From a virus (taxonomy: Duplodnaviria; Heunggongvirae; Uroviricota; Caudoviricetes): a stretch of 47,396 bases of DNA. Position numbers: made by a program. Positions 12,001 to 15,000 of this stretch are shown here, one piece after another. Position 1 is the first letter of the stretch. Every line of letters begins with the position of its first letter. The stretch is taken from the IMG/VR virus record IMGVR_UViG_2684623171_000003. One strand, 5' to 3'.

Positions 12001-15000
12001 ACTGGCAGACGCTGGAGCTGGTGTTCACCGCCGGCAGTGCCACGGTTACTCCGAAACTGAATGGAGTGGCTGGCCCGGCATTCCAGGTTATAAAAGACAG
12101 TCTGACACTGGGACTGAATGCGCTGACGCTGACGGATGTTACAAAAAATGCAGCGTATGGCGTTGAGATAGAAAGTCTGATGCTGGAGATAAATGCACCG
12201 GCAGCATAATAAAAAAAGCCAGCGACTGACCTGAAAAAGAAGACGCTGGCTAAAAGGCCTTATATGTTTGTAGAGACTTATTTTTCACAGACAGCAATGA
12301 TGCCTGTCAATATATTATCAATATGCGGATTGTTTCAGTTACAGATGCTTTATTAAGGAAAAAAACAGCCAGCACTGACTTTCGGTGGAGAGGTGCTGGC
12401 TCAAAAGGATAGATGTACTTCACATGTTGCTTCTATATGGCAGTACATTTTCTGACAGACAGTGACGGATGTTGTCAAGATATTGTGTCATTTATAACCT
12501 GAATCGGGGGAGGCCGGAATGTTATCTGGCATTTTTAGCAGAGCCTGAATGCCATAATCACGGCTCCCGGCGTTGGCCGTCAGTGGGTGACACTGGCGGC
12601 TTTTTTGTTTTCCTTTACTTTCATTTTCTGTCGGCGGTGACGGAGACATACATCAGATGGAAAAAATCACAACGGGTGTGTCATACACCACGTCAGCGGT
12701 GGGGACGGGATACTGGTTACTGCAGCTGCTGGACAAAGTCTCTCCGTCCCAGTGGGTGGCGATAGGTGTGCTGGGGAGTCTGCTGTTTGGCCTGCTGACG
12801 TATCTGACAAACCTTTATTTCAAGATTAAAGAAGATAAGCGTAAGGCGGCGCGGGGAGAGTAAAGCGATGAAGAAAAAATACGAACTGGTTGTTAAAGGG
12901 ATAAATAATTACCCGGATAAGATTACTGTTACTGTGGCACCGGAAATTGGTGGGTATCCGTCACTGTTGTTGCCAGATGTGGCGATTAGTCTTGACCGTA
13001 CTGAAGGTGCCACGCTGGAGTTTTACGAAGCTGAGGCGAAAAAGCAGGCGAAGCAGTTTTTCATGGATGTTGCTGCCGGGTTATGTGAAGGGGATGGTCC
13101 GTTACCGGAAAAGCGTCCCGTAATTTTAGAGGCGCAGGATGTGTTGATAACCTACAGAGGAAAACTACCGGGAATAATTACGGGTTCTCTGAAGACTCCA
13201 CCGCTGGCCTGAAGACTTAACATATCCAGGGATTTGAAATCGATAAACCCTGATAAATATCCATGAACGCAAAAATCAGATACGGCCTGTCGGCTGCCGT
13301 TCTGGCGCTGATTGGTGCAGGGGCGTCTGCGCCTGAAATCCTCGACCAGTTTCTGGATGAAAAGGAAGGTAACCACACCACAGCATACCGTGATGGTGCG
13401 GGTATCTGGACCATCTGCCGTGGAGCCACCCGGGGGGATGGTAAGCCTGTTATTCCTGGCATGAAGCTGTCGAAGGAAAAATGCGACCGGGTTAACGCCA
13501 TTGAGCGTGATAAGGCGCTGGCATGGGTGGAGAAAAACATCAGAGTGCCGCTGACCGAACCCCAGAAAGCGGGGATCGCGTCATTCTGTCCGTACAACAT
13601 TGGCCCCGGTAAGTGTTTCCCGTCGACGTTTTACAGACGGATTAATGCAGGAGATCGAAAAGGTGCCTGCGAAGCGATTCGCTGGTGGATTAAGGACGGT
13701 GGCAGGGACTGCCGTATTCGCTCAAATAACTGTTACGGTCAGGTATCCCGTCGTGACCAGGAGAGCGCGCTGGCGTGCTGGGGAATCGACAGATAAGCAG
13801 AATATTTTGCTGAAAAATGAGGTTTGCTTACATGGACGGATAACACGAAATCCTGCAAATTGGCAAAATGTAAGTGAATAAAGTCAAAACAGTTGTTTAA
13901 CACTCAGGCACCGTAATGATGCCTTTGTCATTTCTGCGCATCTCACGCGCATCTCACAACACAGAACCTTTCAGGATGACCCTTGAGGATACCGGTTTGG
14001 CTGTCGGTGCCTTTCTGTGGGCTGGATTCCTGTGAGACAAGGTTCATCACTAAAAGGAAATAACCGATGAATATGATGGCCGTGCCGTTTCACGGCAACT
14101 CTCTTTATGTAGTTAACCATAATGGCGAACCATACGTTCCCATGAAACCTGTCGTTGCGGGGATGGGGCTGGCCTGGCAATCACAGTTGGCTAAGTTAAG
14201 ACAGCGTTTTGCGTCAACTATAACGGAAATCGTTATGGTTGCTGAGGATGGGAAACAACGCAATATGGTGTCCATGCCACTTCGAAAACTTGCCGGCTGG
14301 CTACAAACCATTAATCCCAACAAAGTAAAACCCGAAATCCGCGATAAGGTCATCCGGTATCAGGAAGAGTGCGACGATGTTCTTTACGAGTACTGGACGA
14401 AGGGTTTTGTCGTTAATCCCCGTAAAATGAGCGTGATGGAAGAACTCAACCAGGCTTGTGCTGACATGAAACGGGATAAAAACATTGCCAGTGTGTTTGC
14501 TACCGGGCTGAATGAGTGGAAACAGGTTAAAGCCGCGCATGTATCAAAAATCCGTACGCTGGTAAATGAAGCGAATATGCTGATTGATTTTGTCCTGGCT
14601 GATACAGGCAAAGGGAAAATAACAAAGGCGGATTGATGGGGTGGCTAATGATATCAGATAAACTCATAACGCTGGTGAAGAGCCTCTGTGTACTTGTCGG
14701 CATTTCATTTTTAGTCATGCTGGTTGCCATTTTCTTTTCCACCGCCTGGCGAGTCCTGACGTTATCGGGACTGGTGGGGTGAAAGAGAGATGAACCGTGT
14801 TCTGTGTGTGGTGATTATTGTCCTGGCGGTTGGCTATGGTGCGCTGTGGCTGGCAACAAACCATTACCGTGACAACGCGCTCACCTACAAAGCGCAGCGC
14901 GATAAAAAAGCCAGAGAGCTGGAACAGGCGAATGCCACCATTACTGACATGCAGGTGCGCCAGCGTGATGTTGCTGCGCTCGATGCAAAATACTCGAGGG

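Follow-up and report, generated by a model that had tools for sequence, protein, structure and literature searches.

A conserved leader of predicted structure precedes an Ant-like Bro-network gene between the endolysin and spanin genes of a Shiga-toxin prophage

The DNA analysed here, a stretch of 47,396 nucleotides (nt) deposited in IMG/VR as record IMGVR_UViG_2684623171_000003 of the Caudoviricetes (hereafter the window), is a Shiga-toxin (Stx) prophage whose positions 12600-15400 are 99.9% identical to phage YYZ-2008. Its lysis cassette (Table 1) contains, between the endolysin gene R and the spanin gene Rz, an Ant-like gene for a 189-residue protein followed by a small hydrophobic open reading frame (ORF). 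The original prediction had singled out these two as an antirepressor-type gene and an unlisted 44-codon ORF; ORF list, sequence and Pfam bear out their coordinates and description, and the gene order confirms that the Ant-like gene belongs to the late/lysis block. Neither is new as an annotation, and the gene itself is an ordinary one. The main new observation is a conserved leader of about 170 nt (13902-14066), just outside the segment covered by the original prediction and contained in the 270 nt without coding that separate R from the 189-residue ORF.

Table 1. Lysis cassette of the prophage and elements of the leader. Coordinates refer to the whole window, and all cassette features are on the + strand. 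aa, amino acids; SAR, signal-arrest-release; MFE, minimum free energy.
Feature	Coordinates	Strand	Evidence or remark
S21-type (pin)holin gene	12657-12863	+	Pfam Phage_holin_2_1, E 1.2e-32; opens the lysis cassette
YdfR/DUF1327 gene, 114 aa	12868-13212	+	Between holin and endolysin
Endolysin R gene (lysozyme, weakly hydrophobic SAR-like N-terminus)	13263-13796	+	Pfam Phage_lysozyme, E 1.5e-24
T1, terminator-like hairpin and U-rich tail	13906-13934	+	Stem 13906-13910 with 13920-13924
H2, short hairpin UGCGC-AUCUCAC-GCGCA	13935-13951	+	Predicted fold
H3, long hairpin, about 90 nt	13967-14057	+	MFE and centroid folds; same architecture in 41 distinct homologues
Gene for 189-aa Bro-network protein (P22_AR_N + ORF11CD3 helical hairpin)	14067-14636	+	Named 'ant' in 933W and VT2-Sakai
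Small hydrophobic ORF	14636-14782 (48 aa) or 14648-14782 (44-aa core)	+	One predicted transmembrane segment
Rz, i-spanin gene	14790-15257	+	Pfam Phage_lysis, E 4.9e-50
Rz1, o-spanin gene, nested in Rz	15010-15195	+	Pfam Rz1, E 1.7e-21

The covariance model of the leader, R1, recognises 42 copies (41 of them distinct) among 92 sources, all on the + strand and all ending at the ATG of the gene that follows, here called the cargo. In the window the match extends over 13902-14072 (148.6 bits, E 2e-28) and is found with the filters off as well; BLASTN retrieves the leader from 308 phage records. Two-domain homologues of the 189-residue protein (about 175-212 residues, P22_AR_N joined to ORF11CD3) occur in many Enterobacterales, and in at least 12 genera such genes have the leader before them. 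Lysis cassettes whose holins, endolysins and spanins belong to unrelated families contain or adjoin the gene in Photorhabdus, Salmonella, Hamiltonella, Serratia and Proteus; a non-coding stretch of 170-220 nt is always present on the 5' side of the gene and, when aligned, proves to be conserved across genera. The leader is also found 5' of Rha+ORF11CD3 genes, of KilA-N genes with or without ORF11CD3, of a 231-residue ANT-domain gene and of TerB-like genes. R1 detected none 5' of P22_AR_N genes with other C-termini (loci L128-L182), and the leader was not found in R-Rz intervals lacking cargo.

The place of leader and cargo relative to the lysis genes varies. The cassette comes after the spanins in P22 rha, in Photorhabdus and with E. 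coli Rha, and before the holin in Salmonella with TerB-like cargo. In P22 (L184, BK000583) the R1 match (39465-39649, 79.8 bits, E 1.7e-14) lies between gene 15/Rz1 and rha. In Serratia, some Xenorhabdus, Arsenophonus and Hamiltonella the cargo stop codon overlaps the start of the i-spanin gene (ATGA). At two Salmonella loci (L096/L103, 4064-4246) it overlaps the start of a 60-residue lipobox protein (..LLVGC..; PHROG 7528), not of an Rz-type i-spanin, and this protein may be the spanin component of a cassette with a GH108 endolysin.

With few exceptions, one and the same succession of elements, T1, H2 and H3, is predicted for the 41 distinct copies. T1, a GC-rich hairpin, is predicted at -7 to -16 kcal/mol with a U-run behind it in 35 of 40 distinct leaders. 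H2 comprises 4-7 base pairs in the different copies, and all five of its pairs show two-sided changes among homologues. At the base of H3 an anti-Shine-Dalgarno (anti-SD) sequence, CCUUU (13967-13971), is predicted to pair with the Shine-Dalgarno (SD) sequence AAAGG (14053-14057) about 8 nt before the AUG, and the 3' strand of the hairpin has a conserved asymmetric internal loop at 14032-14037. The annotated start of P22 rha, at 39575, falls inside H3; R1 and the homologues (MNYPT...) point to 39644 as the start, which gives a protein of 178 residues instead of 201. An ORF of 39 codons at 13916-14035 ('orf39', PHROG 16173, hypothetical in several phage records) was rejected as a gene, since it lies wholly within the leader, and other E. 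coli variants and other genera do not have it as an open frame; it is probably an annotation artefact.

Several comparisons speak for the predicted structure. By RNAalifold, 19 of 21 pairs of the covariance-model alignment show compensatory double changes. Over the 44-pair structure, 81.0% of the cells are paired, compared to 69.5 ± 0.6% after shuffling (0/500) and no more than 50% with slid partners, and 252 cells carry double changes against 100 in the shuffles (0/500), counts that are inflated because the alignment (A7) was fitted to 23 of the 44 pairs. A structure-blind MAFFT alignment of 30 leaders recovers 11 pairs of H3, nine of them with compensatory changes, a result that is weak by itself and consistent with the model; the remaining pairs are lost through offsets of a few columns between subfamilies. 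In 80% of the 41 sequences a CC stands opposite the GG of the SD in the predicted structure, and the adjacent helices carry compensatory changes. The computed probability that the SD is unpaired has a median of 0.14 (0.25 in the window) and rises to 0.50 (0.58 in the window) when the 5' arm of H3 is removed. Finally, G-U pairs are frequent and H3 pairing amounts to 87% on the + strand versus 80% on its complement, which points to an RNA read in the direction of the gene.

No known RNA family was found at the leader by Rfam, neither over the whole window at gathering thresholds nor over 12200-15700 at E <= 1. Searched alone at E <= 10, the leaders of the window and of P22 gave only chance and terminator-part matches, the P22 stretch matching only the terminator parts of models for small RNAs (sRNAs) and leaders. 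A scan of 12300-15700 for sigma-70 promoters detected no promoter-like site within or 5' of the leader, and we therefore do not claim that it belongs to a moron transcribed from its own promoter.

How the Ant-like gene relates to its surroundings is best seen from the diversity of the R-Rz interval. The 1.2-kb region is present, at a coverage of at least 80%, in 648 of 5426 complete E. coli genomes. A survey of 80 IMG/VR loci with Rz at least 89% identical, together with further contigs, revealed at least eight mosaic forms. They include the Ant-like gene with the small ORF (993 base pairs, or longer with two extra small ORFs), the different 231-residue ANT-domain gene with the small ORF, the small ORF and other small membrane ORFs in the absence of a large gene (E. 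coli ED1a and others), and only another small membrane ORF (PHROGs 6632 and 1115/4493). The small ORF thus occurs with or without the Ant-like gene, always directly before Rz or before another small membrane ORF. It belongs to the lysis cassette itself and not, as had been supposed, to an 'Ant insertion', and its presence does not depend on that of the Ant-like gene. Across loci L025-L091 (e.g., L026, L041, L044 and L079) no form of the interval is without a small single-pass membrane ORF, whose end is 1-10 nt from Rz or from a further ORF of this kind; these pre-Rz ORFs fall into three PHROG groups (4906; 1115/4493/3246; 6632) whose functions are not assigned.

In the window, 153 nt separate the stop of the 189-residue ORF from the Rz ATG. 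Translation of the small ORF could begin at TTG 14633 (49 residues), ATG 14636 (48 residues) or ATG 14648 (44 residues), the second of which overlaps the stop of the Ant-like gene as TGATG; the TGA of the small ORF (14780-14782) is followed by 7 nt and then the Rz ATG. In E. coli ED1a, homology to the window restarts at about ATG 14648, 3' of a GGGAGG SD, which makes the 44-residue core the conserved unit. As for the statement that the ORF is unlisted, it is true of the YYZ-2008 and 933W records, which leave it out, but not of BP-4795 (ORF50) or Stx2a_WGPS2 (gp66), where the 48-residue form is annotated, nor of RefSeq E. coli genomes, which list a hypothetical protein, nor of PHROG, where it belongs to phrog_4906 (E 5e-30), a group of unassigned function.

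The ORF probably encodes a conserved, single-pass membrane protein, in line with the original prediction, and the coding evidence is moderate. An alternative that we consider unlikely, while taking it seriously, is that the 44-codon ORF is not a functional gene and that its frame is kept by linkage or by a nucleotide-level constraint 5' of Rz. The ratio of nonsynonymous to synonymous substitution rates (dN/dS) is only moderately below 1, at about 0.57, variable sites are spread evenly over the codon positions (28/26/27) with no third-position excess, and three of 18 distinct variants have an altered N- or C-terminus. Moreover, Pfam, NCBIfam and PADLOC hold no family for it, and E. coli and its Stx phages are the source of all 53 homologues. 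However, the other two frames are unconstrained (0.87 and 1.15), the frame is intact in 15 of the 18 variants, frame and length are retained down to about 60% identity, in four upstream contexts that each supply an own start and SD, and the homologues keep length and hydrophobic core down to about 66% identity; the hydrophobic stretch of about 23 residues, with its predicted transmembrane segment, is conserved across homologues. An ATG-initiated ORF of at least 44 codons would arise in only 0.4% of random 153-nt stretches of the local base composition, and, as described above, other forms of the interval hold different small membrane ORFs at the same spot. The Qin prophage of E. coli K-12, considered as a source of experimentally verified small proteins, was set aside as uninformative, its Rz being of another family and rrrQ overlapping rzpQ there.

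In the 189-residue protein Pfam recognises P22_AR_N (PF10547, E 1.4e-45) and ORF11CD3 (E 5.5e-6), both of which have been named as Bro-network modules (PMC10111431), so that two such modules are joined here in one protein; in neighbouring loci ORF11CD3 is also joined to Rha and to KilA-N. Its residues 1-126 are 50% identical to residues 10-136 of P22 Ant. Beyond residue 136 P22 Ant does not align with the protein, which lacks P22_AR_C. The antirepressor homology of the original prediction is borne out for the N-terminal domain; the term 'AntA-type' finds no support, no match to the AntA domain (PF08346) being obtained from Pfam at E <= 0.01. Pfam found no Phage_pRha domain either, and the BLASTP match to P22 Rha is marginal (E 0.011) and limited to the ORF11CD3 part. 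No family or defence system was matched in NCBIfam or PADLOC by the Ant-like protein, by YdfR or by the alternative cargo. The protein is predicted to be soluble, and its N-terminal module has a putative KilA-N/APSES-like fold of DNA-binding type.

The missing half of P22 Ant is found elsewhere in the window. Gene 5430-6107 encodes a protein of 225 residues (ORF6N + P22_AR_C) that matches the C-terminal 104 residues of P22 Ant with 92% identity, so that the counterparts of P22 Ant are divided over two genes, the late one for the N-terminal and this one for the C-terminal part. An antisense-RNA element of the isrK, c4-a1b1 and C4 families (5178-5376; Rfam 50-77 bits, C4/isrK 75-77) stands directly 5' of gene 5430-6107 in the nin region, and 5178-6107 is a P1-immI-like, RNA-controlled early 'ant', the counterpart of phi24B ant (Fogg et al.). 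The latter sits before qut, and its deletion lowers late-promoter activity after induction; it is the only Stx-phage ant with experimental support for aiding induction (PMC3064807). These functional data consequently concern gene 5430-6107 and not the late copy. Gene 5430-6107 is followed at once by a third Bro-network gene (6176-6904, Phage_pRha + ANT/KilAC, 242 residues) and then by NinG (6904-7509) and Q (7594-8127). In the literature searched, which did not include the original rha paper (Henthorn & Friedman 1995), neither the late ant copy nor the small ORF nor the leader was found to have been studied. The late gene should rather be called a Bro-network gene whose relationship to P22 Ant is confined to the N-domain; the label 'antirepressor', carried by Stx-phage annotations since 933W, rests on half a protein and should be softened.

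We favour, with slightly more confidence than doubt, the reading that a mobile late-gene cassette, locked at the levels of both transcription and translation, has been inserted between R and the small ORF of a resident lysis cassette. The order of elements in the mobile cassette would be T1, H2, H3 with its anti-SD on the cargo SD, and the cargo gene, and the resident cassette would consist of S, YdfR, the SAR endolysin R, the small membrane ORF and Rz/Rz1. RNA polymerase modified by Q passes intrinsic terminators. T1 would stop polymerase that is not antiterminated by Q, so that cargo mRNA would be made only in the late lytic phase, and H3 would mask the ribosome-binding site and keep translation low until the hairpin opens. 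A long stem with an asymmetric internal loop between phage cistrons is the classical shape of an RNase III site, and the likeliest opener would be a cut by RNase III at the asymmetric loop, which would release the SD from its anti-SD in the manner of the lambda N leader. If the SD is indeed sequestered as predicted, the description of the Ant-like gene as simply expressed with the late/lysis genes would be too simple.

Gating of this kind would hold a potentially harmful protein at a low level or delay it to a very late time, which suggests that the cargo is harmful early or in excess. This would agree with what is reported of rha in P22 and phi80, a late-operon gene that, in the account of Henthorn & Friedman (1995) given in PMC4936722, is harmful to phage growth in IHF-deficient hosts. 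As a Rha-like modulator, the cargo protein would most likely act late in infection by binding DNA or a partner protein. The small ORF would lie outside the mobile cassette, as one of at least three families of single-pass membrane ORFs directly 5' of Rz. Its product is probably a component or a modulator of the lysis machinery (SAR-endolysin release, spanin function), or the ORF serves to couple translation into Rz, or both. A broader proposal, which we offer tentatively and with doubt outweighing confidence, takes T1-H2-H3 as an undescribed family of cis-regulatory RNA, a portable 'double lock' travelling with P22_AR_N, Rha, KilA-N and ANT cargo and placing it within or next to the lysis cassettes of temperate phages throughout Enterobacterales, P22 rha and the Stx-phage 'ant' among them, with RNase III or a phage factor timing the cargo to the last minutes. 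Should this be true, the double lock could also time spanin synthesis where spanins are translationally coupled to the cargo.

A number of observations weigh against a gated mobile cassette. The T1 of the window is the weakest of the family (-5 kcal/mol, with a mismatched stem and a broken U-tract) and was missed by a simple terminator scan. The SD of the window, at 0.25, is more exposed than the family median, and the window leader as a whole folds no better than its shuffles (z = -0.37). The partial fitting of alignment A7 has to be deducted from the pair counts, and termination at T1, masking of the SD and cleavage by RNase III are all predictions. As regards the genes, purifying selection on the small ORF is weak and its variants include disrupted ones, as detailed above. 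The Ant-like gene is frameshifted or split at four loci (L006, L012, L022 and L117) where leader and small ORF are intact, which indicates that the gene is dispensable at least in the prophage state. Moreover, the overlap of cargo stop and spanin start in some genera means that the element could serve lysis and not gate a harmful gene.

It is improbable, in our judgement, that the Ant-like protein is a working antirepressor which, made with the late genes, either inactivates the repressors of other resident lambdoid prophages (the cross-induction of the original prediction) or removes the repressor of its own phage and so makes induction irreversible. The shared domain does bring it close to P22 Ant and, with 64-67% identity, to the early Ant of phages 2851 and CUS-3. 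Inactivation of several lambdoid repressors is established for P22 Ant (Susskind & Botstein 1975, as cited in PMC3064807), trans-acting antirepressors coordinate prophage induction in Salmonella (PMC3121763), and O157 strains hold many lambdoid prophages (PMC2669165). Yet P22_AR_C, absent from the late protein, is found in the nin-region gene behind the C4 RNA, whose phi24B counterpart aids induction, and the putative fold of the N-domain is of DNA-binding type. In addition, slot and leader are common to Rha, KilA-N, ANT and TerB-like cargo, so that the position does not specify repressor binding. Translation is predicted to be held down, and synthesis in the minutes before lysis would leave other prophages little time for a full cycle. 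Antirepressor activity of the cargo is possible, the argument for it resting on one shared domain.

We likewise give little credence to the idea that the Ant-like protein, or the cassette as a whole, regulates lysis, for example by setting the amount or timing of spanins through translational coupling, an idea already present in the 933W record, where the gene between R and Rz is called 'ant', similar to P22 Ant, with the remark 'possible regulation of host cell lysis'. The position between endolysin and spanins is kept across non-homologous cassettes in several genera, and the overlaps of cargo stop and i-spanin start point in the same direction. In the window the cargo stop overlaps the ATG of the small ORF, which in turn abuts Rz, so that an effect on spanin translation is possible. 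However, the protein is predicted to be soluble with a putative DNA-binding-type fold, the cassette is elsewhere placed after the spanins or before the holin, many related lysis cassettes lack it, and in some prophages the gene is frameshifted.

That the leader is a diverged C4/isrK immunity RNA, its H3 being processed to a trans antisense RNA that blocks translation of the cargo here and in superinfecting relatives, is very doubtful: its layout does recall the isrK-terminator/C4 region of the window (terminator, UGCGCnnnGCAC, long hairpin with a 3' single-stranded stretch), where R1 has a weak match (15 bits; E 0.11 over the whole window, 0.001 over 401 nt), and Bro-network genes are known sites of C4/CI-type RNA control (PMC10111431), but the C4, isrK and c4-a1b1 models of Rfam do not match the late leader even at E <= 10, so that membership (CL00128, RF01394) was rejected in spite of the reciprocal match and what is left is a resemblance, the predicted SD-masking pairing is in cis and conserved, and the sigma-70 scan detected no separate promoter.

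Returning to the gated late cassette as the preferred reading, its interest lies in one leader standing before varied Bro-network genes in hundreds of phages, including P22 rha, which would offer a mutable handle on their timing. The leader may help to explain why rha is harmful in some hosts. The endolysin-spanin junction would be a recurrent landing site for gated cargo, which matters when predicting the genes that Stx prophages express as the toxin is released, and the small membrane ORFs before Rz are candidates for new lysis regulators in pinholin/SAR-endolysin systems.

A few other elements of the window may be recorded. The YdfR/DUF1327 gene has a copy in some relatives and is missing from others (e.g., 933W), and thus marks a second variable slot of the lysis cassette. 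Stx-phage endolysins of the type of R have been grouped with SAR endolysins (PMC8136144). A strong terminator-like hairpin at 12575-12611, with 11 pairs followed by TTTTTTGTTTT, lies about 50 nt 5' of the holin gene in the late operon and should be another site passable only to antiterminated polymerase. Between stx and the SASA/NanS-p esterase gene (10359-12209), Rfam identifies STnc100 (9939-10152, + strand, 190 bits) and the anti-GcvB sRNA AgvB (10153-10212, - strand, 56.6 bits), which together span 9939-10212. In the early region an ALIL frameshift pseudoknot (1590-1706, 121 bits) at the junction of the overlapping ORFs 1309-1635 and 1632-2522 indicates an insertion sequence of the IS3 family (1309-2522).

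Known systems resemble the late cassette in different respects. The same gene is found at the same place in 933W (ST933Wp46), in VT2-Sakai, whose ant is 100% identical in amino-acid sequence to the 189-residue protein, and in BP-4795 (ORF49, followed by ORF50), and its naming there is by similarity only. With the Ant of the P22 immI region the late gene has P22_AR_N in common; it differs in ending with ORF11CD3, in having no arc/mnt/sar control, and in lying in a lysis cassette behind another RNA leader. The small ORF is comparable to antiholins, to P2 LysA/LysB and to the Mu releasin in being small, with one predicted transmembrane segment, and encoded inside a lysis cassette, here of the pinholin/SAR-endolysin/spanin type, whereas its sequence matches no named family. 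P1 c4-icd-ant, P4 CI/eta and Gifsy-1 isrK-orf45-anrP likewise combine a terminator and a long structured RNA with a Bro-network gene whose translation is controlled. The window has a true example of such an arrangement at 5178-5376, from which the late leader is set apart by the absence of C4, isrK and c4-a1b1 model matches, by its late operon and by the predicted masking of the SD in cis. The lambda N leader and the early processing sites of T7 resemble H3 in their long, near-continuous stem with an asymmetric internal loop, placed between cistrons and including the downstream SD, a likeness drawn from the predicted shape of H3 and from general knowledge of those systems. Finally, the rha genes of P22 and phi80 differ from the gene of the window in an N-terminal Phage_pRha module in place of P22_AR_N, in a similarity that is marginal overall, and in the IHF-related phenotype, recorded for Rha only; they share with it the same leader, the ORF11CD3 C-terminus and a late-operon place beside the lysis genes.

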